Source of the DNA: a virus
Lineage: Duplodnaviria; Heunggongvirae; Uroviricota; Caudoviricetes
IMG/VR virus record: IMGVR_UViG_2778261222_000004
Location: 1-36,061 of that record
Direction: 5' to 3' (one strand)
Length of the DNA stretch: 36,061 nucleotides
The notes beneath the pieces are model-generated. The model was not told where the DNA came from. It searched no databases and worked only from the letters and a program-made list of their open reading frames with translations. Shown here one piece after another: positions 5,145 to 30,368 of the stretch (position 1 is the stretch's first letter; each line of letters starts with the position of its first letter). The translations under genes and the position numbers were made by a program.

Positions 5145-5190
5145 CCGGCCAGTGAAAATCGCTGGCCGGAGCAGTATCAGGATTTTTTTT
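5145..5190 (+). terminator. putative intrinsic terminator after the SPFH operon
   Basis: Perfect 8-bp stem CCGGCCAG / CTGGCCGG (5145-5152 / 5162-5169) with a 9-nt loop, followed at a distance by a T8 run (5183-5190). Confidence 0.4.
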
Positions 5191-5370
5191 AGTATGCCGT
5201 TCTCACAAAAAAACCGCTTGCCATGCCGCAATCAGTCAGGTTACATTTCCGCTGCACCTCATAAAACGGGTGCCGGGTTTCGCAGCCTGCTGACAACCAA
5301 AGCGCACAACCGCGCCAGCGGTTTTTTTGTGCGTACTGTATTGCCACGTCTTTTTCGCACACGAATTATG

Positions 5371-5444
5371 GCGGGGCGTACGGGGCCGACTTCGGTCGGG
5401 CCGGGTTCTTTGGTTGCCGGTACTGCGAACCCCGTACGTCTCGC
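5371..5444 (+). other. structured element: 15-bp long-range helix enclosing a UUCG-tetraloop hairpin (candidate ncRNA or RNA regulatory structure)
   Basis: 5371-5385 (GCGGGGCGTACGGGG) pairs with 5430-5444 (CCCCGTACGTCTCGC): 13 Watson-Crick plus 2 G-U pairs; inner hairpin CCGAC-TTCG-GTCGG at 5386-5399; sits in a 370-bp stretch with no convincing ORF. Confidence 0.35.
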
Positions 5445-5507
5445 CACCCACAGTTTCGCAGCTCTGGATGGTGAGTTTTCAAAACTTACAACCAAAGAGG
5501 CCACACC

Positions 5508-5738
5508 ATGGCAAACCGCAAACAGCACCGCGCTATCGCGGAGCGTCGTCACATCCAGACTGAAATCAACCGCAGACTTTCCCGCGCATTCCGCGTCGCT
5601 AAAATCATGCACATCAATATGCTGCATGAGCGTAGCTGCGAACTTTCAAACCTCTACTCATCCGCTGTTTTCAGTTATCTGGCGGATGATCTGCGCGAGC
5701 TTCAGCAGCTCATCCAGCAGCAAAACAAACTCCATTAA
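5508..5738 (+). CDS. hypothetical basic protein
   Basis: 76-aa ORF with RBS AGAGG upstream of ATG 5508; Arg/Lys-rich N-terminus; function unknown. Confidence 0.45.
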   Translation: MANRKQHRAIAERRHIQTEINRRLSRAFRVAKIMHINMLHERSCELSNLYSSAVFSYLADDLRELQQLIQQQNKLH

Positions 5739-5810
5739 TTCCTGTTCCGGGCCTTTCCTGCACCTTGCGGCGGGAGGCCTTCGCACATCTGTAACAAGAG
5801 GATTGCCGCA

Positions 5811-6176
5811 ATGATTCTCGCCAACGACTTTCTTGAATACCTGCTCAACACAGAGCGTGATCTTGCCGCTCGCGTGCGTGATCGTTATGACATGTACCTG
5901 AAATCCCTGCCTGTACCGCAGCTCGCTGACGGAAAGATTGTTATTGATGGTCGCTACATGATTGACAGCCACGAGGGAAATTACAGGCTTTCCCGCATTG
6001 AAGGTGGCACCCCGTCCGTTATTGGCATTTACCAGCGCCCATCCTCTGCAATCGTCGATGTGATTGCCGACAGCATCCGCATCACACATCGCCATGCCGA
6101 CACAGAAGACACCGTGCTGGAAATTCAGCGGCTGGCTACAGTCTGCCGCGACACCCTGAATGGCATGACGAAGTAA
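5811..6176 (+). CDS. hypothetical protein immediately upstream of the replication gene
   Basis: 121-aa ORF with RBS AAGAGGA; same strand and tight spacing with the A-type gene. Confidence 0.5.
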   Translation: MILANDFLEYLLNTERDLAARVRDRYDMYLKSLPVPQLADGKIVIDGRYMIDSHEGNYRLSRIEGGTPSVIGIYQRPSSAIVDVIADSIRITHRHADTEDTVLEIQRLATVCRDTLNGMTK

Positions 6177-6182
6177 ATCACT

Positions 6183-9005
6183 ATGACGGCAGAGTACATC
6201 AGGGACTGGCAACAACCGCGCCACGCAGTGGGGCGTGAAGGAACGGGGATCCCCGCTCCTGAATCCGCGCTTTCCTCCTGGCTGGATGCCTACCGGGTAG
6301 AGAACGAGCGCCGCCAGGAAATGGCTGATGCGGCGTTCTCCGCCACGCCGCTGGGCAACCTGATTAATAAAAGCCTGGACGCACAGGAAAAACAGGACAA
6401 AACCATCACACTGGCAGGAGACGCCAGAAAACAGGCACGCGGCGCAGTGGATGAAGCCATGACCTCGCTGCGCCTGCTGCCGTCCTATCTGCGCGATCCG
6501 CTTATTCGCCACCTCTCCTTCCTGCGCAAAAAACAGGAAGCCGATCGCCGGAAAGGCAAAAAGAGCTGGCAGGCTGAACGCTACGCGCGCGGAACCCTGC
6601 GCAAAATATTCGTACGTCTGGACCGCACCGACAGCCGTTGGCTGACACCGGGTTATCGGTCCCTTGCCGGACGTGAACGCCTGGACGATTTGCTTTACCT
6701 GCCGCAACTCAACAAACACCAGATACAGACGCTGGCCACCATGACGGCGGCGATGTTCAGCAGCACCTTCGAAAAACTCTGCGATGGTTTTGGCGCGACT
6801 GATGGCGAGCTGACCATGGATGTAACGCTGAAGGCGTATCAGATGCTGGCCCGCATGGCGTTACACTTGCACGCCATGCCTCCGCATTATGACGCACTGA
6901 CAACAGACAAAGACCGGAGGAACGAACCGGACACAGAACTGCTGCCGGGCGCAATCCTTCGCCTGACCTGTGCGGAATGGTGGAAACGCAAACTGTGGCT
7001 GTTACGTTGCGAGTGGAGAGAAGAACAACTCCGCGCCGCCTGTCTGGTTTCCAGAAAAACATCGCCCTATCTGAGCCAGGACGCGTTAAGCGAGTTTCGC
7101 GCACAGCGCGAGAAAACACGCGATTTCCTGAAAAGTTTCATGCTGGAAAACGAAGACGGGTTCACGATTGATCTCGAGACAGTGTATTACGCGGGAGTAA
7201 GTAACCCGGTTCACCGTAAGGCAGAAATGATGGCCACCATGAAGGGGCTGGAACTTCTGGCCGAAGCCCGTGGCGACAGAGCGGTGTTTCTGACCATCAC
7301 CTGCCCGTCAAAATACCACGCCACAACAGAGAACGGTCATCCGAATCCCAAATGGAATGGGGCCACCATGCGCGACTCCAGCGATTACCTGGTTAACACG
7401 TTTTTTGCGGCGGTCCGCAAGAAACTGAACCGCGACGGCCTGCGCTGGTATGGTATCCGCACGGTGGAGCCTCACCATGACGGCACCGTGCACTGGCATA
7501 TGATGGTCTTTGCTCATCCGGAAGAAATCGACACCATTGTGTCTCACACCCGCGATATTGCCATTCAGGAAGATCGTCACGAGCTGGGTGATGATATTAC
7601 CCCACGCTTTAAGGCGGAGTACGTCGACGGCTCAAAAGGCACGCCAACCAGCTACATCGCCACCTACATCGGAAAGAACCTGGACAGCCGCGCCGTAGAT
7701 GGCATCGACCCGAAAACGGGCAAGCCACGCGTTGACCACGAAACCGGAAAATCAATGGCCGAGAGCGTGGAACGCGCCATCGGCTGGGCGCGCCTTCACC
7801 GTGTCCGCCAGTTCCAGTTCTTTGGTATCCCCTCCCGTCAGGTGTGGCGTGAACTCCGCCGCCTTGCCAGCCAGATGGCACGCAACCCGGAAGGCCCGCA
7901 ACGGCTGAAGGATGACGCAATGGATGCGGTACTCGCTGCCGCTGATGCCGGATGTTTTGCCACCTACATAGAGAAACAGGGCGGCGTACTTGTTCCACGC
8001 AAAGACTACCTGATTCGCACAGCCTACGACCTCGCAGATGAGCTGAACGATTACGGCGAACAGAGCGTACAGATTTACGGGATCTGGTCACCACTCATCG
8101 GGGAATCCTCCCGTGTGTGCACGCATCCGGATAACTGGATGCTGGTAAGACGTAAACCGGAAGCGGAAGACAGCACCCGCGAAAATGGTTTTGACCTTCA
8201 GGGCGGCCCTGCCGCCCCTTGGACTCGTGGCAATAACTGTCCCCGTGTACAGGAAACAGGCAACAACGGGACAGAACAGCCGGAAGAACGGCCAGCACCG
8301 TGGCCGCAGATTCCTGACGGCGTTGAAGTGAATGAATGGATGCGCTCACTGAAACGGCACGAACGCCGGGCGCTGATGCGTTCGCTTCGTGACAAACAGG
8401 CAAAAAACAGCAGTGATGAAATGCAAAGCTGGACACAGAGCCGCAAACAGCAGCGGCCTTTGCCTGATAACCACGAATTACTCGCTAAAGAATGGCGGGA
8501 GTCTGCTGAATCTCTCGGCCTGCATATTGGTGAACAGCAGATGCAGCACCTGTTACGGGGCGGCAGTCTGTACGTTGACGGCAGCATCATTGCACCGCAG
8601 GGATTTGAAATTGTACGCAAACCGGATACCCGCCCGGACAGCCGAATCACGCAGCTCTGGCAGCGCCTGAGCCGTAATCACGGCGTAAGCAGCACGGAGA
8701 TCCGCCATAACCCGGCCGCCAGCTATCTGGAACAGCTGGGGGCATCAGACCCCGAAGCCGCCGCACGTCTGGCATCCACACTTCAGCAGGACCAGAACAC
8801 CATGAAAACCCCCGTTACCGTGCTTTCTGACATGCTGCGCGCCATCCGCGACGCAGAGCATGCACAGAGAATCAGTGAAACCACTGAACGCGCCCGCCGC
8901 AAAGCAGACCTGCTGCGGGGTGGCCTGACAAGTGGAAACAAAAAACAGACAGAAACGGGATTCACAAATCCCGTAAATGAGCAAAAAACGCGCCGCGATA
9001 TATGA
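6183..9005 (+). CDS. rolling-circle replication initiator endonuclease (P2 A / phiX174 gpA family, HUH superfamily)
   Basis: 940-aa ORF; HUH-type motif HWHMMVF and paired catalytic tyrosines YIATYIGK; position after the early operon as in P2; long hydrophilic C-terminal extension. Confidence 0.9.
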   Translation: MTAEYIRDWQQPRHAVGREGTGIPAPESALSSWLDAYRVENERRQEMADAAFSATPLGNLINKSLDAQEKQDKTITLAGDARKQARGAVDEAMTSLRLLPSYLRDPLIRHLSFLRKKQEADRRKGKKSWQAERYARGTLRKIFVRLDRTDSRWLTPGYRSLAGRERLDDLLYLPQLNKHQIQTLATMTAAMFSSTFEKLCDGFGATDGELTMDVTLKAYQMLARMALHLHAMPPHYDALTTDKDRRNEPDTELLPGAILRLTCAEWWKRKLWLLRCEWREEQLRAACLVSRKTSPYLSQDALSEFRAQREKTRDFLKSFMLENEDGFTIDLETVYYAGVSNPVHRKAEMMATMKGLELLAEARGDRAVFLTITCPSKYHATTENGHPNPKWNGATMRDSSDYLVNTFFAAVRKKLNRDGLRWYGIRTVEPHHDGTVHWHMMVFAHPEEIDTIVSHTRDIAIQEDRHELGDDITPRFKAEYVDGSKGTPTSYIATYIGKNLDSRAVDGIDPKTGKPRVDHETGKSMAESVERAIGWARLHRVRQFQFFGIPSRQVWRELRRLASQMARNPEGPQRLKDDAMDAVLAAADAGCFATYIEKQGGVLVPRKDYLIRTAYDLADELNDYGEQSVQIYGIWSPLIGESSRVCTHPDNWMLVRRKPEAEDSTRENGFDLQGGPAAPWTRGNNCPRVQETGNNGTEQPEERPAPWPQIPDGVEVNEWMRSLKRHERRALMRSLRDKQAKNSSDEMQSWTQSRKQQRPLPDNHELLAKEWRESAESLGLHIGEQQMQHLLRGGSLYVDGSIIAPQGFEIVRKPDTRPDSRITQLWQRLSRNHGVSSTEIRHNPAASYLEQLGASDPEAAARLASTLQQDQNTMKTPVTVLSDMLRAIRDAEHAQRISETTERARRKADLLRGGLTSGNKKQTETGFTNPVNEQKTRRDI
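8953..8977. repeat. 25-bp palindromic element, copy 1 (AAACGGGATTCACAAATCCCGTAAA)
   Basis: Inverted repeat ACGGGATT / AATCCCGT inside the last codons of the A-type ORF; matches copy 2 at 23 of 25 positions. Confidence 0.6.
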
Positions 9006-9025
9006 AGCGCGCATAAAACAGGCAA

Positions 9026-9050
9026 AAACGGGATTTAAAAATCCCGTAAA
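9026..9050. repeat. 25-bp palindromic element, copy 2 (AAACGGGATTTAAAAATCCCGTAAA)
   Basis: Perfect 9-bp inverted repeat ACGGGATTT / AAATCCCGT with 2-bp spacer, 73 bp downstream of copy 1 and about 30 bp upstream of parM. Confidence 0.6.
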
Positions 9051-9081
9051 CGATTAATTAATCAACATAAGGAAAAGCGAC

Positions 9082-10041
9082 ATGAAAATTTGTATCGACG
9101 ACGGCTCCACCAACATCAAGCTGGCATGGACTGAGAACGGCGAACGCCGCAACGCCATCAGCCCGAACAGCTTCAAGTCGGAATGGTCTGCGCCGTTCGG
9201 TGGCACGCAGCCCGCGAACTACATGCTTGATGGTGTGCGCTATGGTTTTGATCCGGTCAGCGATCGCTTTGTCCAGACGACCGACACGCAATACCAGTAC
9301 AGCGATGTGAATGTCATTGCCATTCATCACGCGCTGGTCAAATCAGGCATCACGCCACAGGAGGTGGATGTGGTTGTCACCCTGCCACTGAGCGAGTATT
9401 TCGACACAAACGCACAGCCGGACATGGCCAACATCAACCGCAAAAAAGCGAACGTTATGCGCCCGGTGGAGTACCAGAACGGCGAAGCATTCACTATCCG
9501 TAACGTGCGGGTTATGCCTGAATCCATTCCGGCTGGCTTTAAAGCACTGGCCGACATGAGTCCGTTTGAATCCCTGCTGATTGTGGATTTGGGCGGAACC
9601 ACGCTGGATGTGGCAAAGGTTCAGGGGCAGCTGGCAGGTATCAGCCAGGTGTTTTGCGATCCACACGTAGGCGTTTCTCTGATGGCCGATGCCGTGCTGT
9701 CGGTGATGGCCACCAACGGTATGCGCACCAGTCACCACATCGCCAATACCATTATCGAACATCGCCACGATGAAGCCTGGCTGCGCCAGCACATCCACAA
9801 TGACGCGCATTACGCCAGCCTGATGGCAGTTATTCGTGAAAAGGAAGAAACACTGAAACAACGCGTGATCCGCGCGCTGGCGGGTTTTTCGGGTTACGGG
9901 CGGGTGATGGTTGTAGGTGGAGGAGCGGAGATTGTGGCACCCGCTATCTGCGAAGCCTGCGGAGTTAATGCGACTTTCATCGCGGACGGGGTGCCACAGT
10001 TTGCTCTGGTTAATGGGCTGTACGCAATGGACCAGGAGTAA
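9082..10041 (+). CDS. parM: actin-like plasmid segregation ATPase ParM (StbA family)
   Basis: 319 aa; N-terminal phosphate-1 block ICIDDGSTNIKLAW, DVNVIAIHHAL, VMPESIPAG, LLIVDLGGTTLD and MVVGGGAE blocks align by eye along the whole length with plasmid R1 ParM. Confidence 0.9.
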   Translation: MKICIDDGSTNIKLAWTENGERRNAISPNSFKSEWSAPFGGTQPANYMLDGVRYGFDPVSDRFVQTTDTQYQYSDVNVIAIHHALVKSGITPQEVDVVVTLPLSEYFDTNAQPDMANINRKKANVMRPVEYQNGEAFTIRNVRVMPESIPAGFKALADMSPFESLLIVDLGGTTLDVAKVQGQLAGISQVFCDPHVGVSLMADAVLSVMATNGMRTSHHIANTIIEHRHDEAWLRQHIHNDAHYASLMAVIREKEETLKQRVIRALAGFSGYGRVMVVGGGAEIVAPAICEACGVNATFIADGVPQFALVNGLYAMDQE

Positions 10042-10045
10042 ATCA

Positions 10046-10360
10046 ATGACGACACCAACCAGACGGATAAGTTTCTATCTGAAGCCCACCGTCGTCAAGA
10101 GCGAACGGGAGGCGTGCAGTTACCTCGACAGCCTGCCAGCCTCCGAACGCAGCCGCGCACAACGCGCGGCTTTTCTGGCCGGACTGGCTCTTATAAAACG
10201 CACCCCCGCGTTGGCGTATTCGCTGGCAGAATGGTCAGAAGACGAAATACGGATGCCACCGCTACCAGTACAGCCTGAAAAACCGGCGCAACCAGCAGCA
10301 GACAGCGCCCCCCATATGCAGCAGGTGAAAAAGAATATTCAGGCGTTTTTCCCGAAGTGA
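10046..10360 (+). CDS. parR: ParR-like centromere-binding adaptor (ribbon-helix-helix)
   Basis: ATG 10046 with AGGAG about 7 nt upstream, 4 nt after the parM stop; N-terminal block ISFYLKPTVVKSEREACSYLDSLPASERSRAQRAAFLAGLAL resembles R1 ParR; the ORF-track start 9917 lies inside parM and is rejected. Confidence 0.7.
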   Translation: MTTPTRRISFYLKPTVVKSEREACSYLDSLPASERSRAQRAAFLAGLALIKRTPALAYSLAEWSEDEIRMPPLPVQPEKPAQPAADSAPHMQQVKKNIQAFFPK

Positions 10361-10374
10361 AAACAGGAGTAACT

Positions 10375-10662
10375 ATGTCCACCATTACCAAAGAATGGTT
10401 ACAACGTAAAATCACAGAGTTTAAATCGTGGCGCGAAGACATCCCGTTCGGTCTTGATGAAGACGATCACAATATGTTAACCGCACTGGAAATCGCACTT
10501 GCATCACTGGAAGCAGAGCCAGTGGCATGGATACACGCAAATAATCCTATTGGAATACCGGCGATAACAAGAAGTAAAGATGTTGCAGACAGCTGGCGCT
10601 CTAAGGGATGGAATGTATTGCCTCTTTATTCACTGACCCGCTCCATCAATTTATGCCATTAA
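10375..10662 (+). CDS. hypothetical protein (cargo gene)
   Basis: 95 aa from ATG 10375 with AGGAG 5 nt upstream; lower GC than the flanking core genes by eye; no recognisable motif. Confidence 0.45.
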   Translation: MSTITKEWLQRKITEFKSWREDIPFGLDEDDHNMLTALEIALASLEAEPVAWIHANNPIGIPAITRSKDVADSWRSKGWNVLPLYSLTRSINLCH

Positions 10663-10673
10663 TGGAAGTAATC

Positions 10674-11033
10674 ATGATGAAAGATAATTCCGGAAGCCAG
10701 CGTGCATCAGTTGCAGTTATGGTGATGATTAAATTTGTGAAACAGTACACCGGAAAGCCAATCTCGCTCCGGCAATTAAGCAAAGAAACCGTTTCACTGT
10801 CATATCTGGAGCAAATATTCAGATATTTACGGGAAAGTAGCCTGGTAAAAGCCACACGCGGCCCGGGTGGTGGATATATCCCAACAAAAGAAAATTACAG
10901 TGTTGGTGATATTGTCCGGGCAATGAAATGTTCCGGATTATATACACAGCACGTTATTCTGGCTGCACTGGATAATATTTCTTTAACCAGCCTGCAGGAA
11001 GACACAAATTATCAGTTGTCTGCCATTGAATAA
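10674..11033 (+). CDS. Rrf2/IscR-family-like winged-helix regulator (short form)
   Basis: Signature blocks ISLRQLSKETVSLSYLEQIF and RGPGGGY typical of Rrf2-family regulators; ATG 10674 preceded by GGAAG; the ORF-track start 10608 overlaps the upstream gene. Confidence 0.6.
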   Translation: MMKDNSGSQRASVAVMVMIKFVKQYTGKPISLRQLSKETVSLSYLEQIFRYLRESSLVKATRGPGGGYIPTKENYSVGDIVRAMKCSGLYTQHVILAALDNISLTSLQEDTNYQLSAIE

Positions 11034-11038
11034 GAAAA

Positions 11039-11079
11039 CCCGGAACGGGTGCGCAAATTCTTTGTGCGCCCGTTCCGGG
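11039..11079. terminator. bidirectional GC-rich hairpin terminator between convergent genes
   Basis: Inverted repeat CCGGAACGGGTGCGCA / TGCGCCCGTTCCGG with AAATTCTTT loop, between the Rrf2-like gene (plus) and the ogr-like gene (minus). Confidence 0.6.
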
Positions 11080-11101
11080 TTGGACAAGCGAAGCGCGTCA
11101 G

Positions 11102-11424: not shown

Positions 11425-12459
11425 TCACTCCATGGGTTCATCAAAATCAAGAATAAATTTCACCTCCCCCAGTCGTCTGATATCCGGGTCGCTGTTGATC
11501 CCCTCCATAATCAGGCGGCGCATCGGGATAACCTCATCCCTGTAATATGCCTCGCGGGATTTCAGTGGGTCACCAAGCCCGGCCGTATTTGCGGGAATGA
11601 TGCCGGCAAGTCCGGGTGGGAAACGGTGCGCAACGAGCTGATCCTGGGCACTGATGGTTTTTATATTCAGGAACTCATCTTTTGTACCTGAATCCCCGAT
11701 AGGGATCACCTTAACGCCTTCTTTGTCTCCGCCCGGTATATTGATAAACATGGATTTAAAATTGCCCGCCCCTTTTGACGCCTCTATCTTTTTACGGAAT
11801 TCCGCCTCGAGCTCGGGATCCATGTCCGGGTCAGTGGAATACAGGATATAACCAAGATGTGCGCCGTTCTTGTAATACTTGCGGCGAAAGCGGGTGGCAT
11901 CCACATTCAGCATGGCGGATTCCATCCCGTGAATATAATCCGGGACACCGTAAACCTGCTGTTGCGGATCATAAATGGCCACGAACACCACTTCGCCTGG
12001 CGGGTAAACGAGATCTTCCAGTGCCGCCTGCACAATCACCGTGCCACCCTCGTTGTTACGCCGCAGGTACAGAGAAGGTAACGTATGCAGGCGCACCACT
12101 CGACCGAAGCCATTCCGCACTTTAAGCAACCCCATATCCCCGAATATCAGCAGATTGGTTACTGCTGCCGCCATGGCGGCGTGTGTCATACCACCACCAC
12201 CCCGAAAACCCTGCATGATCATATTGACGCGCGCACGCAATACCGCGCCGTGATACGGTGCGATATTGGACAACATGGCGAGATCCATGCGCTCAATGGG
12301 CGGCGTGTACCAGCCATTATAGCCATCCCAGAGCGAGCCGTAATAACAGCCCCATGCAGCGACCGGTTCCGGGTCACCAAATTCAATAAAAGTCATTTTG
12401 CTGGCTGTTTTTTTTGCCACGCCATCGTGTAACACGGGGTATTTTTTCTTTTTACTCAT
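11425..12459 (-). CDS. portal protein (P2 gpQ-like)
   Basis: 344 aa; conserved blocks RRKYYKNGAHLGYILY and GNFKSMFINIPGG seen in P2-type portals; start overlaps the terminase stop as in the P2 P-Q operon. Confidence 0.9.
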   Translation of the reverse strand: MSKKKKYPVLHDGVAKKTASKMTFIEFGDPEPVAAWGCYYGSLWDGYNGWYTPPIERMDLAMLSNIAPYHGAVLRARVNMIMQGFRGGGGMTHAAMAAAVTNLLIFGDMGLLKVRNGFGRVVRLHTLPSLYLRRNNEGGTVIVQAALEDLVYPPGEVVFVAIYDPQQQVYGVPDYIHGMESAMLNVDATRFRRKYYKNGAHLGYILYSTDPDMDPELEAEFRKKIEASKGAGNFKSMFINIPGGDKEGVKVIPIGDSGTKDEFLNIKTISAQDQLVAHRFPPGLAGIIPANTAGLGDPLKSREAYYRDEVIPMRRLIMEGINSDPDIRRLGEVKFILDFDEPME

Positions 12460-14239
12460 CTGACAGGATCCATGTTGATTTGCGCTTGTGCTTATAGTTC
12501 AGGGGTTCATTACTTGCGGCATGAGCTATGGCAAAGAAGATGTCAGCGTGCCCGGTTTCTTCGCTACGTTCGGCGGTGAAAGTGACTTTATTGCCGCTGT
12601 TGGTGGATTCCTGACGAATGGCCAGGAACGATGCCGGAATATCCGTGGCTTCTTCATCCCACTCAATACGGTTGGCGTAAATCAGATCCAGCATCTTCAT
12701 CACCAGGCGGTTTTTGGATTCCACGCTGTAATGAATGGCCACTGTTTCACGGCGGGCAAACCCCTGAACCAGCTCAAAGACACCGTAGCCAAGACCGGTG
12801 ACGTCAATGCCGATAAATGTCATGTTATAGCGCGCCTTAATGCTGCGGATACGCTCTGCCATAAACTGGAATGACATGCTGCGCCAGTGGTGTTTTTCCA
12901 GCACGCGGAATCGTTCTGCCGCAACCAGCGGCGGTGCCAGCACAACAAATGTGGCGTTATCGCCGGAGCGCGCAGGGTCAAAGCCGCCCCACACTTCACG
13001 GTTACCAAATGGCATGGGCTCTTCCGGGTGAAAATCCTCCCACGTACTGACATCAACACCACAACGCACAAGATCATCGAATTTAAAGACGCTCTCTTTG
13101 TCATCCACAAACACACACATAAACAGCATATTGAACGCTGTTTCGTTGTATCGCTCGCGCAGCTCGTTGATGTCAGCAAGGTTAAAGCCGCCAGCAATGG
13201 CATCTTCCAGCGTAACCACATAGCGCCACTGACCATCCGGACATTCACGCCCACCATCGCGCAGCTCATCAAAGGACGGAAACTCAACCCCTTTTCGTTT
13301 CGGATCGCCTTTGCGCCATTCATCGCCAGACCAGAACGGGTAACCCTGGTGTGTTTTGGATGACGGCGTGGAGAAATAGGTAATGCGCCAGTGTTTATGG
13401 GTGGCCATCCCTGATGCCACTTCATTGAGACGGCGAAAACCGGGGATCCACAGGTATTCATCAATATACAGGTGGCCGCTGTTTGACTGCGCTGTGTTAC
13501 TGTTGGTCGCCAGAAAATACAGTTCAGCCAGATTACTTAACTTAACCGGATTGCCTTTAATGGGAATGCCAAACTCTGTTTGTGCAATTTTTACAATATA
13601 AGTACGGAACACTTCGGCCTGACGTTTTGATGCCGATAAAAATATCTGTGTGTCGCCGGTTAATACTGCATCTTCAAATGCCTCAAACGCGAAGTAATAC
13701 GTCGCCCCAATCTGGCGGGATTTAAGCAGGTTGCGTACACGGCGGAATTTGTTTTCACGCAGATGCAACTGATAAGCAAACAACTTTTTCGTAAACGGCT
13801 CAAAACTTTCAGCAGTCAGTCCGGAAACGTCATTAGCTTTGCGGGGACGCTCTTTCTTGCCTGCACCTTTTTCTCCGCGTTCTTCTTTTCCATAACGGCC
13901 AGGTTGGGGAATGTCCACTCCCATTCGCGCAATCTCAGCCATTCGTTCCGTGTGCTTGTTTCTGACCGACATCAGTTTGACGTGATGACCAATCAGGCGA
14001 TCGAGCTCATCGTGTTCTTCCTGGGTCTTATGGTCACGTTCCGCCAGTACAGCGAGACGCCGGGCGATAACATCTTCCACGCCTTCCGTATTGAGCTGCA
14101 TGTACCACTCAAACTTTGTCGCCCAGTAATAAACAATTCGCGGGCTGTTCAGTCCGAGCTTCTTTTGTATTTCTTTTGGTGTGTGCCTTTTCAGATAGAG
14201 CGATTTTGCAGCAGCAATCACCTCGTCAGAATACGCCAT
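12452..14239 (-). CDS. terminase large (ATPase) subunit (P2 gpP-like)
   Basis: 595 aa, first gene of the leftward packaging operon, divergent from the capsid operon exactly as in P2. Confidence 0.9.
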   Translation of the reverse strand: MAYSDEVIAAAKSLYLKRHTPKEIQKKLGLNSPRIVYYWATKFEWYMQLNTEGVEDVIARRLAVLAERDHKTQEEHDELDRLIGHHVKLMSVRNKHTERMAEIARMGVDIPQPGRYGKEERGEKGAGKKERPRKANDVSGLTAESFEPFTKKLFAYQLHLRENKFRRVRNLLKSRQIGATYYFAFEAFEDAVLTGDTQIFLSASKRQAEVFRTYIVKIAQTEFGIPIKGNPVKLSNLAELYFLATNSNTAQSNSGHLYIDEYLWIPGFRRLNEVASGMATHKHWRITYFSTPSSKTHQGYPFWSGDEWRKGDPKRKGVEFPSFDELRDGGRECPDGQWRYVVTLEDAIAGGFNLADINELRERYNETAFNMLFMCVFVDDKESVFKFDDLVRCGVDVSTWEDFHPEEPMPFGNREVWGGFDPARSGDNATFVVLAPPLVAAERFRVLEKHHWRSMSFQFMAERIRSIKARYNMTFIGIDVTGLGYGVFELVQGFARRETVAIHYSVESKNRLVMKMLDLIYANRIEWDEEATDIPASFLAIRQESTNSGNKVTFTAERSEETGHADIFFAIAHAASNEPLNYKHKRKSTWILSDE

Positions 14240-28328: not shown

Positions 28329-30368
28329 ATGAGCGCACTGTTAACAAAAGCATTTGAAAAGTGGGTTGCTGAATGCACTGCCAGTAATTTACCTGCACGC
28401 CCTGACGCTATTATTTTTGCCCTGATGGAGCGGGAACCAACGCGCGAAGACAATACCGTTCCGGAAGACAGAATCACATACGCTGTGAATGAACTGACCT
28501 GTGGCCAGTTAAGCCAGGACACTATTGTGTGCAGCGCCGTTGTTCCTGATGACTGTGTTTTCAGTTATGACTGGATTTGTCTCATCCATCAGGCCAGTGG
28601 AACGTTATGCGGCGTAATAAAAACTCCCGTCAGACAGAAAACGACAGGTGAGTCACTCGTCCGCAATTTTACAATCACCTACAGAGGCATTGCTCAGTCC
28701 GCGCAAATCAGCGTCCCTCCCCAGAGCTGGCAGGTGGATATCACTCCGGAGCTGAAAACAGCACTGAAAACTCCTAATCACCTGTCAGAAATTGCAGCAG
28801 AAGGCGAAGAGGCGCAACAGGAATCCCGCGACAATCTGGGACTGAAAGTTTCAGCCATAATGGAGCCACAGGGTGATATTCGAGACCGGACTGAAGGTTG
28901 TCTGGCGATACCGGGCGCATTTGGTTTTGGTCATATTTTTATTCCGGGTGATGCTGTCAGGTTTAACAACGAGGCTGATTTGCTGGCATGGGTAAGATGT
29001 GTGGAACCCGGAGAATATTATGTGGAGGGGGGAAGCGGAGTACTTCCCGGCATCGCCTTCCGGGGGATGATAAGTATCCGCTGGCTGGAAGCAGAACGCT
29101 CCACACCTCTGCCACCACATACAGCAAAGGCCATTATTTTCTATGGCATTAACGGTGATATTTATTACAACCGTTACTGGAGTACAGGAAATGGATTGCT
29201 GACTGGCTGGGAAAACCTGAAAGTCAACGAGGCTTCACTCAGGGCGCTGATTGAAACCCGCGCGCCGCTGAACAGCCCGGCGTTCACCGGTACGCCAACC
29301 ACACCAACCCCACCGGATGATGCGGTCGGGCTGGAGATGGCGAACGCGGCGTTTGTCCGCAAACTGCTCGCTGCACTGGTTGGCTCATCTCCGGAAGCCC
29401 TTGACACACTGAATGAGCTGGCAGCGGCGCTGGGCAGTGACCCGAATTTTGCAACGACGGTCACTAACGCGCTTGCAGGCAAACAGCCACTTAGTGATGT
29501 TTTAACCGCCATCAGCAGGTTAAACGCTCAGGCAGATAATCTTCTGTACTTTGATTCGGACGGGAACGCATCGCTGACACGGTTGACGCCAGAAGCCCGT
29601 TCACTGCTGGCACAGGCCACACCGGAAGATATGCGCAGAGTGCTTGAGCTGGAAAGGTCAGACACTGTGGTGCCACAGAATAATATTTATGACCGCAGCG
29701 AAGGCGTGGTGGCCATTCCGGGGACGCTGGGATATGGAGGATATTACCGACATGAAGACAAAGTCATTTTCAGGGGAGAAAACGGCCCTGCTGATTTTAT
29801 TTCCTGGGTATCCACTACACCACCGGGCCGGTATGCGGTAGGAGACGGTACTTCATATAGCGCGCCTCAGATTATTGACAAGGAAAATCGTCTGGAAGGG
29901 ATTGTTGAAATTATTATTCCGGATACAGCCTCCTCGTCTTCGCAATCGCGTGCAGACAAGCTCATTATTTTCATGAGTAAGAAGGGAGAAATGTTTATCA
30001 ACTGGCTGAAATGGACCAGTGCCGGAGCCGGTCTGGCTGGCTGGGGAAATCTCAGCGCGAAGGGATTACGCTCTGCTGACTTCTGGGGAAACCCGGGGAT
30101 TGACGGAGTCACACTGGCAGCAATATCTGTCGCTGACCTTGCCTCACATAAGCGTGGGGACAGGATATCAGGCGAAAAGTTACGGCATGTATCGCTTATG
30201 TTTGAGAACAATGGTAATCCGTGCGCAGCGGCATCGGTTTACAACGTATCGATGATGTACGGGTTATTGCCGGGGTCCTATTTTATTCTGAATGGCTCCA
30301 GTCAGAGTCTGAACTGTGGGAATAAAGCCAATGCCTGGTGGATTTGCCTGGTGATGAGGGCAGAATAA
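28329..30368 (+). CDS. tail fibre protein 2 (P2 gpH-like conserved central motif)
   Basis: 679 aa; contains LNSPAFTGTPTTPTPPDDAVGLEMANAAFV ... SSPEALDTLNELAAALGSDPNFATTVTNALAGKQP, a block widely conserved in P2 H / Mu S / P1 S-type fibres. Confidence 0.85.
   Translation: MSALLTKAFEKWVAECTASNLPARPDAIIFALMEREPTREDNTVPEDRITYAVNELTCGQLSQDTIVCSAVVPDDCVFSYDWICLIHQASGTLCGVIKTPVRQKTTGESLVRNFTITYRGIAQSAQISVPPQSWQVDITPELKTALKTPNHLSEIAAEGEEAQQESRDNLGLKVSAIMEPQGDIRDRTEGCLAIPGAFGFGHIFIPGDAVRFNNEADLLAWVRCVEPGEYYVEGGSGVLPGIAFRGMISIRWLEAERSTPLPPHTAKAIIFYGINGDIYYNRYWSTGNGLLTGWENLKVNEASLRALIETRAPLNSPAFTGTPTTPTPPDDAVGLEMANAAFVRKLLAALVGSSPEALDTLNELAAALGSDPNFATTVTNALAGKQPLSDVLTAISRLNAQADNLLYFDSDGNASLTRLTPEARSLLAQATPEDMRRVLELERSDTVVPQNNIYDRSEGVVAIPGTLGYGGYYRHEDKVIFRGENGPADFISWVSTTPPGRYAVGDGTSYSAPQIIDKENRLEGIVEIIIPDTASSSSQSRADKLIIFMSKKGEMFINWLKWTSAGAGLAGWGNLSAKGLRSADFWGNPGIDGVTLAAISVADLASHKRGDRISGEKLRHVSLMFENNGNPCAAASVYNVSMMYGLLPGSYFILNGSSQSLNCGNKANAWWICLVMRAE

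Follow-up and report, generated by a model that had tools for sequence, protein, structure and literature searches.

A candidate parC-like site built of two palindromic repeat units upstream of parM-parR in a P88-like prophage of Escherichia coli

The parM-parR locus and the two palindromes

The window, that is, the whole stretch of 36,061 nt analysed here, is a P88-like (Xuanwuvirus) prophage of the P2 family, and this P2-like prophage is very common in E. coli. Of 5426 complete E. coli genomes, 1372 contain P88-like prophages with an intact and strongly conserved ParM-ParR pair. The genes and elements considered in this work are the following, with the strand given where one applies:

6183-9005, + strand: gene A, replication endonuclease of the P2 gpA type (Pfam Phage_GPA, 4.5e-131)
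8205-8241, + strand: homologue of the P2 ori nick-site region inside gene A, aligning to P2 29839-29949 (annotated nick site 29892)
8936-9066: whole candidate parC-like region, at the left end of the parMR cassette, marked by helically phased A-tracts and by the cassette boundaries
8939-8980: distal 42-nt repeat unit, overlapping the last codons of gene A and 86% identical to 9012-9053
8955-8974: distal dyad, ACGGGATT-CACA-AATCCCGT, with the conserved core GGG (8957-8959)-N10-CCC (8970-8972)
8981-9011: spacer between the units, a GC-rich imperfect dyad (CGCGCC...GCGCGC) that holds the gene A stop codon, TGA, at 9003-9005
9012-9053: proximal 42-nt repeat unit, direct-repeat partner of 8939-8980
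9028-9047: proximal dyad, ACGGGATTT-AA-AAATCCCGT, with the core GGG (9030-9032)-N10-CCC (9043-9045), lying 54 to 35 nt before the parM ATG
9052-9065: 12-bp palindrome GATTAATTAATC overlapping a ATTAATCAA box, the box being conserved in Hafnia and Plesiomonas
9069-9077, + strand: Shine-Dalgarno region of parM, AAGGAAAAG, conserved across lineages in the alignment
9082-10041, + strand: parM, actin-like partition ATPase (Pfam StbA_N, 1.8e-82; ParM C-terminal domain, 1.6e-67)
10046-10360, + strand: parR, ribbon-helix-helix adaptor of 104 aa and of the StbB/ParR family (R1/StbB-type; Pfam Plasmid_stab_B, 2.1e-23)

The two par genes are clear members of plasmid partition families. The parM product matches the structure of R1 ParM (PDB 1mwk) with E = 3.8e-92 and is 46.5% identical to the ParM of IncFII R1-type plasmids (tblastn), and the gene is under strong purifying selection, with 6-7% of sites variable at codon positions 1 and 2 versus 47% at position 3. 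The parR product matches the structure of pB171 StbB (PDB 2jd3; E = 0.009) over residues 6-62, which make up the N-terminal domain. Its N-terminal DNA-binding strand, TRRISFYLKP, is invariant across about 85 loci, the remainder of the protein is mosaic, and the C-terminal tail N..LFP (motif N..(L/M/F)F) is conserved with plasmid ParRs. The locus therefore has the make-up of a type II (ParMRC) system: an actin-like ATPase, a ribbon-helix-helix ParR directly 3' of parM with a C-terminal ParM-binding tail, and a repeated cis site beside the operon, here in the form of two 42-nt repeats with dyad cores. The genes 3' of parR differ, being an Rrf2-like regulator in the window, other genes in P88 and HicAB in Serratia.

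An earlier note on this DNA had described two 25-bp palindromes with 23 of 25 positions identical and 73 bp apart. This anatomy is well established: the copies are AAACGGGATTCACAAATCCCGTAAA (8953-8977) and AAACGGGATTTAAAAATCCCGTAAA (9026-9050), the spacing being counted from start to start. The first is made of 8 bp arms around a 4-nt centre, and the second of 9 bp arms around a 2-nt centre. The second copy, which had been placed about 30 bp upstream of parM, ends 31 nt before the ATG at 9082; the first, which had been placed in the last codons of A, spans codons 924-932 of the 940-codon ORF. What had escaped that description is the true length of the repeat unit, a direct repeat of 42 nt that is 86% identical over copies 73 bp apart.

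The search for the motif elsewhere in the genome that had been suggested as a check has now been run, and the two copies are the sole matches within the window. With up to 3 mismatches allowed, the core ACGGGATT-N4-AATCCCGT still has no place in the 36 kb other than 8955-8974 and 9028-9047; chance would give 0.11 matches, and two or more appear in 1 of 100 shuffles. A core with a 5-nt centre gives 0 matches in the window, the true centre being 4 nt, and neither another repeat array nor a further copy of the motif was found in the 36 kb. Downstream of the proximal dyad, the element at 9052-9065, whose palindrome is preserved in the variant GGTTAATTAACC, could be a weak -10 element or a piece of the mRNA leader. 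Within the E. coli clade, 9054-9081 is the least variable non-coding stretch and the spacer at 8981-9011 is the most variable part of the region.

The region at 8936-9066 ranks 1 of 7187 sliding 130-bp windows for A-tract periodicity of 10-11 bp, with a peak at 10.5 bp. This periodicity is a sequence proxy for intrinsic curvature, and by that proxy the site carries the helically phased A-tracts of an R1-type parC. The same phasing is found upstream of parM in Serratia and Enterobacter prophages and in the parC regions of IncL/M and IncF plasmids; it is weak in Hafnia and absent in Plesiomonas, which counts against a parC-like reading. No consensus sigma-70 promoter lies between A and parM (8000-10384 searched), so that the "parM promoter" assumed earlier finds no counterpart in the region and an operator role for the palindromes is conjecture. 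A hand-picked pair of -35 TTTAAA and -10 ATTAAT is weak and is not conserved in Serratia. A weight matrix made from the ten R1 iterons shows no enrichment in the region (3 matches, rank 581 of 7185 windows), and in place of the R1-type arrangement, with about five direct 11-bp iterons on each side of a promoter, there are two dyad units only. The same matrix matches both Plesiomonas units, at 11.4 and 8.3 bits, and a cluster of matches at 12316-12460 in the window comes from runs of A in lysine codons where the portal gene begins.

Inheritance of the repeats and their diverged relatives

In prophages that have the same A gene and no parMR, homology to the window is lost at about 8889-8911, and A ends without a palindrome. 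Conversely, in the loci L051 and L093 an unrelated ORF of 155 aa precedes parM, and homology returns exactly at 8941, at the start of repeat 1. The only constant companions of the repeats are parM and the N-terminal part of parR, and the alignments thus indicate that the repeats are inherited with parMR and not with gene A. The final 21 residues of gene A are the only ones common to the unrelated 155-aa ORF of L051. These last ~21 codons are therefore best annotated as belonging to the cassette, and a functional contribution to the replication protein is unlikely; the overlap between the distal unit and gene A is incidental, as any upstream ORF simply continues into the cassette as far as a stop codon. 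The small ORFs lying between A and parM were considered as a third cassette gene and discarded, those of L051 and Hafnia being unrelated.

In P2-like prophages of Hafnia, Plesiomonas, Serratia and Enterobacter, the interval from gpA to the portal gene likewise contains parMR genes, in diverged form. ParM identity to the window is 62-63% in Hafnia and Plesiomonas and 54-58% in Serratia and Enterobacter. In the first two lineages the two-unit layout is retained: two GGG-N10-CCC units lie upstream of parM with a spacing of 73 bp in Hafnia and 72 bp in Plesiomonas, at offsets from the ATG of -128/-55 and -131/-59, respectively, compared with -125/-52 in the window. Such a pair arises in at most 1e-5 of 200-nt regions in composition-matched shuffles. 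The inner palindrome and its hairpin stability are gone from the units of both lineages. Since layout has been kept and hairpins have been lost, recognition of double-stranded DNA by a protein is favoured over an RNA hairpin or a terminator. Each of the two Plesiomonas units finds its best match in the other (26 nt, 81%), which points to continuing constraint or concerted evolution.

The two-dyad layout is not kept in the Serratia and Enterobacter lineages, which counts against a parC-like reading; in favour of that reading, the half-site CAAAAACGGGA recurs there in a different inverted arrangement. It had been stated beforehand that a motif unconserved upstream of parM homologues would speak against the idea, and on this point the outcome is divided, the GGG-N10-CCC pair being kept in Hafnia and Plesiomonas but not in Serratia and Enterobacter. 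A scan of IMG/VR for CGGG-N10-CCC-N5-25-ATTAATCAA returned the same E. coli clade and chance matches only. A search of IMG/VR with the Hafnia ParM returned nothing, and one with the Plesiomonas ParM returned one Enterobacter-type locus (L224).

Within the E. coli clade the sample comprises 80 IMG/VR loci, 3 GTDB genomes and 14 phage records with ParM at least 95% identical, and it is too shallow for a test of conservation. In these close relatives the palindrome arms are not less variable than third codon positions (variable sites 0.31-0.44 versus 0.47-0.59; 70 distinct sequences), and mean minor-allele fractions are similar in the same set. Natural variants that break the dyads are common, such as CCC to CCT at 9045 (11/52 distinct sequences) and T to C at 8961 (12/52). 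Arm conservation in this clade is no better than that of synonymous sites, which counts against the parC-like reading.

Alternative explanations for the palindromes

Several other roles can be proposed for the palindromes, and three of them would operate through the nucleic acid itself or through gene A. It is quite improbable that they act as + strand RNA hairpins in an A-parM read-through transcript, as a processing site, a stabiliser or a means of translational coupling. Each palindrome does fold as an RNA stem-loop, at -10.7 to -11 kcal/mol (z-score -3.6 to -4.0), and the region is probably transcribed, as neither a + strand terminator nor a consensus promoter lies between A and parM. The departures from pairing in copy 2 are mostly G-U-compatible on the + strand (61 vs 7), but the bias in copy 1 is opposite (1 on the + strand vs 31 on the - strand; 52 distinct sequences), so that there is no consistent strand signal and the counts weigh neither for nor against an RNA structure. 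Clear compensatory double changes do not appear in the E. coli clade, and the stems of Hafnia and Plesiomonas are reduced to 3-4 bp (-4.6 to -5.2 kcal/mol, z 0.08 to -1.96) whereas position and spacing are kept. Rfam gives no match that would place the hairpins in a family, its sole hit being Atu_C3 at 16.3 bits versus a gathering score of 100 (E = 0.43). Very improbable is the suggestion that the palindromes are - strand intrinsic terminators which keep antisense or late read-through out of gene A and the early operon. Both look terminator-like on the - strand, with an 8-bp stem, 4 G-C pairs and the tails TTTTTGCC and TTCTGTCTGT; A-runs follow the stems on the + strand, so the pattern fits an intrinsic terminator on the - strand only. 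The T-runs are, however, the mere complement of the conserved A-tracts, the annotated or family-supported genes from 5152 to 11033 (A, parM, parR and two ORFs after parR) are all on the + strand, and the convergent portal operon already has a strong terminator-type hairpin behind it, at about 11035-11080. In Hafnia and Plesiomonas the stems have not been conserved, and there is no obvious rationale for two terminators 73 bp apart in and beside a coding region. As for gene A, whose ORF contains copy 1 and inside which the P2 ori is known to lie (NC_001895 annotation), it is extremely improbable that the palindromes serve it as an origin, a nick site or a rolling-circle termination signal. The homologue of the P2 nick site, a 50-nt island of ~90% identity common to otherwise diverged P2-like phages, lies at about 8211-8241, ~730 bp upstream, and is separate from the palindromes, and an A-dependent origin is most likely located there. 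Moreover, A genes of the same family terminate without palindromes when parMR is missing, the first unit falls in unrelated ORFs in L051 and Hafnia, and no U-tract follows on the + strand. The link to A-dependent replication or termination that the earlier note had offered as an alternative is accordingly unsupported.

Two further explanations concern the DNA as a binding site and as a remnant. It is unlikely that the repeats bind a protein other than ParR, for instance a host nucleoid protein or another phage regulator, which would control parMR. A dyad-symmetric site upstream of an operon would be suitable for dimeric regulators of many kinds, the sequence is weakly conserved within the E. 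coli clade, and the adjoining ATTAATCAA / GATTAATTAATC element is better conserved. Against this stands the inheritance pattern, in which no gene other than parM and the N-terminal part of parR always accompanies the repeats and the genes downstream of parR vary, as well as the restriction of the motif to this single place in the phage, unlike the operators of global phage regulators. Distinctly unlikely, in turn, is that the repeats are a non-functional relic, palindromic by chance, which a tandem duplication of 73 bp produced at the junction of the cassette or which recombination left as a scar. The units do form a 42-nt direct repeat of 86% identity, and within the E. coli clade the rate of change in the arms is close to that of synonymous sites. 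Nevertheless, the layout, the 72-73 bp spacing and the distance to parM persist in Hafnia and Plesiomonas, where the surroundings are no longer alignable, and the Plesiomonas units are again mutual best matches.

Proposed function and comparison with known partition systems

On balance, the region at ~8936-9066 is probably a parC-like ParR binding site, the candidate centromere and possibly the operator of a type II (ParMRC) cassette. This was the first proposal of the earlier note, and it is the best supported one, on comparative and contextual grounds, since the repeats are inherited together with parM and the N-terminal strand of ParR and since the layout is kept at 62-63% ParM identity; the operator part of the proposal is conjectural. 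From these observations we infer ParR binding, centromere activity and autoregulation, which could be connected as follows. In each dyad, ribbon-helix-helix ParR dimers would occupy the half-sites (A-tract)CGGGA and TCCCG(A-tract). With the two dyads seven helical turns (73 bp) apart on intrinsically curved DNA, a single ParR-DNA complex would be assembled, and this complex would capture the ends of ParM filaments via the conserved C-terminal tail of ParR. It would probably also limit parMR expression, because the proximal dyad lies 35-54 nt before the parM start codon.

A more speculative extension, rather doubtful at present, is that a two-dyad minimal centromere, partly embedded in the replication gene at its 3' end, allows a rolling-circle, integrating P2-like phage to use an R1-type ParMR on excised or infecting circles. 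If so, ParMR would position or segregate phage genomes before integration or during induction, about one quarter of sequenced E. coli strains, as lysogens, would carry a ParR-bound centromere on their chromosome, and incompatibility with plasmids carrying related par loci would be possible. In the literature searched, no paper was found on the cis site or the role of this prophage parMR. The candidate centromere is now defined as a 130-bp fragment with four mutable half-sites, which makes it testable whether an R1-family ParR can work with two dyads in place of ten iterons, and of what use a plasmid partition machine is to an integrating phage.

The best-known site of this kind, parC of R1/NR1, has its direct 11-bp iterons arranged 2 x 5, with a clear promoter in the 39-bp gap between the two sets (PMC2241845; Dam & Gerdes 1994), and is strongly curved (PMC2241845). 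The prophage site resembles it in its position directly upstream of parM-parR, in the homologous ParM and a ParR of the same Pfam family, in being A-rich on the parM coding strand with a helical phasing that implies curvature, and in its two separated blocks. It differs in having two dyad-symmetric units 73 bp apart with no consensus promoter between them, in the overlap of the distal unit with a coding region and in its replicon, an integrating P2-like phage. Two dyads are also far fewer than ten iterons or than the 12 ParR dimers that make up one turn of the ring (PMC5016525), which counts against the parC-like reading. The contrast with R1 parC drawn in the earlier note therefore stands as regards the absence of 2 x 5 direct iterons around a clear promoter, but not as regards the phased A-tracts, which are shared with the regions upstream of plasmid parM genes.

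Among integrating elements, the srpMRC locus of the SXT/R391 ICEs offers a type II-like partition system whose centromere, srpC, is likewise located upstream of the M gene (PMC4489591). It comprises four short repeats, direct and inverted, which act in pairs, half-sites alone giving no stable complexes (PMC4489591). A centromere of two pairs of mixed direct and inverted repeats is thus already known. On the other hand, SrpR has no detectable homology to ParR, whereas the ParR of the window is a clear StbB/ParR member, the repeat sequences are unrelated, and binding has been shown for srpC (PMC4489591) whereas the prophage site is a candidate proposed from sequence. Prophage CGP3 of Corynebacterium glutamicum provides a second parallel, with a prophage-encoded actin-like filament protein (AlpC), a DNA-binding adaptor (AlpA) and adaptor sites upstream of the operon. 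There, alpS is formed by 24 short TTAAnnG repeats, and the role proposed for the alp system is the handling of excised, replicating phage DNA and not plasmid inheritance (PMC4446434, PMC5539076). Neither AlpC nor AlpA is a close relative of ParM or ParR, the phage is of another type and its host is Gram-positive.

The closest plasmid parMR loci are those of IncL/M pOXA-48-like plasmids, of IncFIA/FIC plasmids and of a Serratia plasmid, with ParM 50-52% identical. They share the gene order, and in IncL/M and IncF the stretch upstream of parM comes first or nearly so for T/A-tract phasing. They differ in having a recognisable -35/-10 pair with direct iterons of 10-11 bp arrayed on either side, and no GGG-N10-CCC unit is found upstream of parM in the IncL/M, IncFIA/FIC or Serratia plasmid loci. 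The ParR of pB171 reportedly uses two 10-bp repeats. Within this range of systems, the candidate site in the window is a known kind of element laid out in an unusual way.

Anatomy and setting of the repeat pair

The palindromic elements lie at the junction between the replication gene A and the parMR partition genes of the prophage:

6183-9005, gene A, P2 gpA-type replication endonuclease (Phage_GPA, 4.5e-131)
8953-8977, palindrome copy 1 (distal), 25-mer AAACGGGATTCACAAATCCCGTAAA
9026-9050, palindrome copy 2 (proximal), 25-mer AAACGGGATTTAAAAATCCCGTAAA
9052-9063, perfect 12-bp palindrome GATTAATTAATC
9082-10041, ParM (StbA_N, 1.8e-82; R1 ParM structure 1mwk, E = 3.8e-92)
10046 (ATG) to 10360, ParR, 104 aa, StbB/Plasmid_stab_B family (2.1e-23)

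The pair is present as the earlier note had described it, with 23 of 25 positions identical and a spacing of 73 bp. Copy 1 occupies codons 924-932 of the 940-codon A ORF, whose TGA stop lies at 9003-9005, and copy 2, placed by that note about 30 bp upstream of parM, ends 31 nt before the ATG at 9082. The repeat unit is longer than first reported, extending to 42 nt (8939-8980 versus 9012-9053, 86% identity). Across the 36-kb window the ACGGGATT-N4-AATCCCGT core has exactly these two matches, and still two when up to three mismatches are allowed; the chance expectation is 0.11, and at least two matches arose in 1 of 100 shuffles.

A 2.1-kb query (8000-10100) matches Escherichia phage P88 (Xuanwuvirus, Peduoviridae) at ~97% identity, and a 1-kb query (8500-9500) is 100% identical to a chromosomal prophage of E. 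coli FHI_NMBU_10. Of 5426 complete E. coli genomes, 1372 (25%) contain the A-parM junction, with up to three copies each; it is nearly always chromosomal, and just two cases are plasmid-borne. An integrated P88-like prophage is also carried by a Salmonella IncHI2 plasmid (L007, NZ_CP110658.1). A ParM of 97% identity is found in an enterobacterial prophage on a 226-kb contig labelled Vagococcus sp. WN89Y, Firmicutes (L009, NZ_JBQPOM010000071.1), an assembly that is most likely contaminated or mislabelled. Downstream of parR, 10357-11033 forms a variable cargo slot. The window has a 101-aa ORF and an Rrf2-family regulator there, P88 has other ORFs, Serratia has HicAB, Enterobacter has a KAP NTPase, and others have a DUF3800 protein. 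A strong GC-rich hairpin (11035-11080, CCCGGAACGGGTGCGCA...TGCGCCCGTTCCGGG), which separates the + strand cargo genes from the convergently oriented portal gene, looks like a bidirectional terminator.

Assignment of the repeats to the parMR cassette

The location of copy 1 within gene A had raised the alternative of a role in A-dependent replication or termination. In the P2 record the nick site is annotated at 29892, within gene A, and ~8211-8241 of the window aligns to that stretch (GCCGCCCCTTGGACTCGTGGCAATAACTGT in the window, GCCGCGCCTCGGAGTCCTGTCAATAACTGT in P2). The aligned stretch lies within a 50-nt island of gene A (8199-8248) that retains ~90% identity in P2-like phages of Klebsiella, Salmonella and Yersinia, although megablast can no longer align the rest of their A genes; this island is very likely the replication origin of the window phage. 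The nick-site homologue therefore places the origin ~730 bp upstream of the palindromes, which were rejected as a gene A origin; they were likewise rejected as gene A terminators, since their stems are followed by A-runs on the + strand. The gene A alternative is thus rejected, and natural recombinants assign the repeats to the parMR cassette instead. The same A gene is present without parMR in two prophages (L091 and L092); their homology to the window ends at ~8911 and ~8889, respectively, and their A genes terminate without any palindrome. In two others (L051 and L093), an unrelated 155-aa ORF (L051 3457-3924; L093 2598-3065), whose N-terminus bears a CxxC...CxxC zinc-ribbon motif, comes after an 871-aa A, and homology to the window restarts precisely at 8941, in the opening bases of repeat 1. 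This ORF runs across repeat 1 to the same TGA as gene A, resembling the window A protein (940 aa) only in its last 21 residues; it lacks any equivalent of the extra ~70 C-terminal residues of that protein. A third unrelated ORF (167 aa) spans both units in Hafnia. The parMR cassette therefore begins, on its left, with the repeats, and gene A owes its tail to incidental read-in.

On the right side, the homology of most loci stops at 10198, inside parR. ParR, which weakly matches the ribbon-helix-helix domain of pB171 StbB (structure 2jd3), exists as two main alleles of 52% overall identity, the window type (104 aa) and the P88 type (103 aa), which have their first 14 residues identical and retain the C-terminal tail motif. 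As ParR is mosaic past 10198 but its N-terminal strand TRRISFYLKP is invariant in ~85 loci, the jointly inherited unit is the repeats, parM and the DNA-reading end of ParR. This mosaicism suggests that a ParM-facing or oligomerisation part is exchanged while DNA specificity is fixed.

Variation and conserved layout

Within the E. coli clade, the palindrome arms show no better conservation than synonymous sites, and alleles that break the dyads, such as the CCC to CCT change of the proximal unit, are frequent. Departures from pairing show opposite strand biases in copies 1 and 2 and therefore carry no verdict on RNA structure; the palindrome region has no Rfam match. Among non-coding stretches, conservation is highest in the A-tract at 8937-8952 and in 9054-9081, which comprises the GATTAATTAATC palindrome, the ATTAATCAA box and the ribosome-binding site. 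In four distinct sequences both symmetric positions of this palindrome are changed (GGTTAATTAACC), leaving it perfect, and five others carry a single one of these changes; in Hafnia and Plesiomonas only its ATTAATCAA part is conserved.

Plasmid and phage databases showed no ParM between ≥95% and ≤52% identity, a gap that was filled from a large protein database by Hafnia (62%), Plesiomonas (63%), Serratia (57-58%) and Enterobacter (54-55%), all encoded in P2-like prophages at the same location, with gpA on one side and the portal gene on the other. Alignment anchored at the parM start reveals two GGG-N10-CCC units in each of three lineages.

Table. GGG-N10-CCC units upstream of parM (positions are those of each unit's first G relative to the parM ATG)
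Lineage; distal unit; proximal unit; positions; spacing
E. coli (window); CGGGATTCACAAATCCCG; CGGGATTTAAAAATCCCG; -125 / -52; 73 bp
Hafnia; TGGGATTGAGGAAACCCA; CGGGTTCATTAAATCCCA; -128 / -55; 73 bp
Plesiomonas; CGGGACAACAAAAACCCG; CGGGACAACACTAACCCA; -131 / -59; 72 bp

Composition-matched shuffling of each lineage's 200-nt upstream region (100,000 trials) produced a pair of this kind at 70-75 bp spacing once for the window and never for Hafnia or Plesiomonas, and no such unit was found upstream of parM in the compared plasmid parC regions. In Plesiomonas, too, each unit finds its best match in the other (26 nt, 81%). Hafnia and Plesiomonas keep the outer GGG/CCC, the 13-bp centre-to-centre distance, the seven-turn spacing and the distance from parM, while the inner ATT/AAT palindrome is lost; the predicted stem is -10 to -11 kcal/mol (z-score -3 to -4) in the window and -4.6 to -5.2 kcal/mol (z-score 0.08 to -1.96) in these relatives. 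This combination of retention and loss fits a dimeric protein reading double-stranded DNA, not an RNA hairpin or cruciform.

The two-unit GGG-N10-CCC layout is shared by E. coli, Hafnia and Plesiomonas; the arrangement differs in Serratia and Enterobacter. There, CAAAAACGGGAAC is kept but paired with GTTCCC ~60 bp off, within a long inverted repeat with 26-28 nt between its arms, GAAATAGAAAAATG and CATTTTTCTATTTC, and an additional proximal palindrome, GCCGTTTAAACGGC, is present; the ParR strand reads NRKISFYLKP. The candidate site in these loci (L097/L101 3887-3940; L099 3883-3950; L103; L224) has the form GGGAAC..AGAAAAAT, 26-28 nt, ATTTTTCT..GTTCCC. The inner arms of this site are similar to the direct iterons TATTTTTCT in an IncL/M plasmid parC region (L003). 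The durable element seems to be the half-site plus its A-tract, in a plastic arrangement.

Proposed mode of action and comparison with plasmid parC

The best-supported reading, which we consider somewhat probable from sequence comparison, is that the palindrome pair is a candidate centromere/operator. The four half-sites would be occupied by ParR dimers, the 73-bp spacing and phased A-tracts would place both dyads on one face of bent DNA in a single complex, and the conserved ParR C-terminal tail would join this complex to ParM filaments. Lying 35-54 nt upstream of the parM ATG, the proximal dyad may in addition limit expression. Neither a terminator nor a clear or consensus promoter was found between A and parM, and parMR is therefore presumably read through, at least in part, from the early operon; it would act on circular phage DNA after infection or induction. 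Precedents for actin-like systems on integrating elements are AlpAC/alpS of CGP3 (PMC4446434) and srpMRC of SXT/R391 (PMC4489591).

In A-tract phasing, 8936-9066 shows the strongest 10-11 bp periodicity of 7187 sliding windows, peaking at 10.5 bp. By this measure, the stretch preceding parM takes first place in the IncL/M plasmid and in Serratia and Enterobacter, and fifth place in an IncF plasmid; in Hafnia it falls within the top 3%, and in Plesiomonas it does not rank at all. R1 parC is reported to be strongly curved and to adopt a U-shaped fold in complex with ParR (PMC2241845), and the phage site has the A-rich phased character in common with it. In the closest plasmid loci, arrays of 10-11-bp direct iterons flank a clear -35/-10 pair on both sides, whereas the phage region lacks a clear promoter and is not enriched in matches to the R1 iteron matrix. 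Its architecture is therefore not that of an R1-type parC. The contrast drawn earlier with R1 parC is partly right: the iteron arrangement differs, but the A-rich phasing is shared. The candidate centromere of this R1-family ParMR locus consists of two conserved dyads rather than ten direct iterons, and its host is an integrating P2-like phage.
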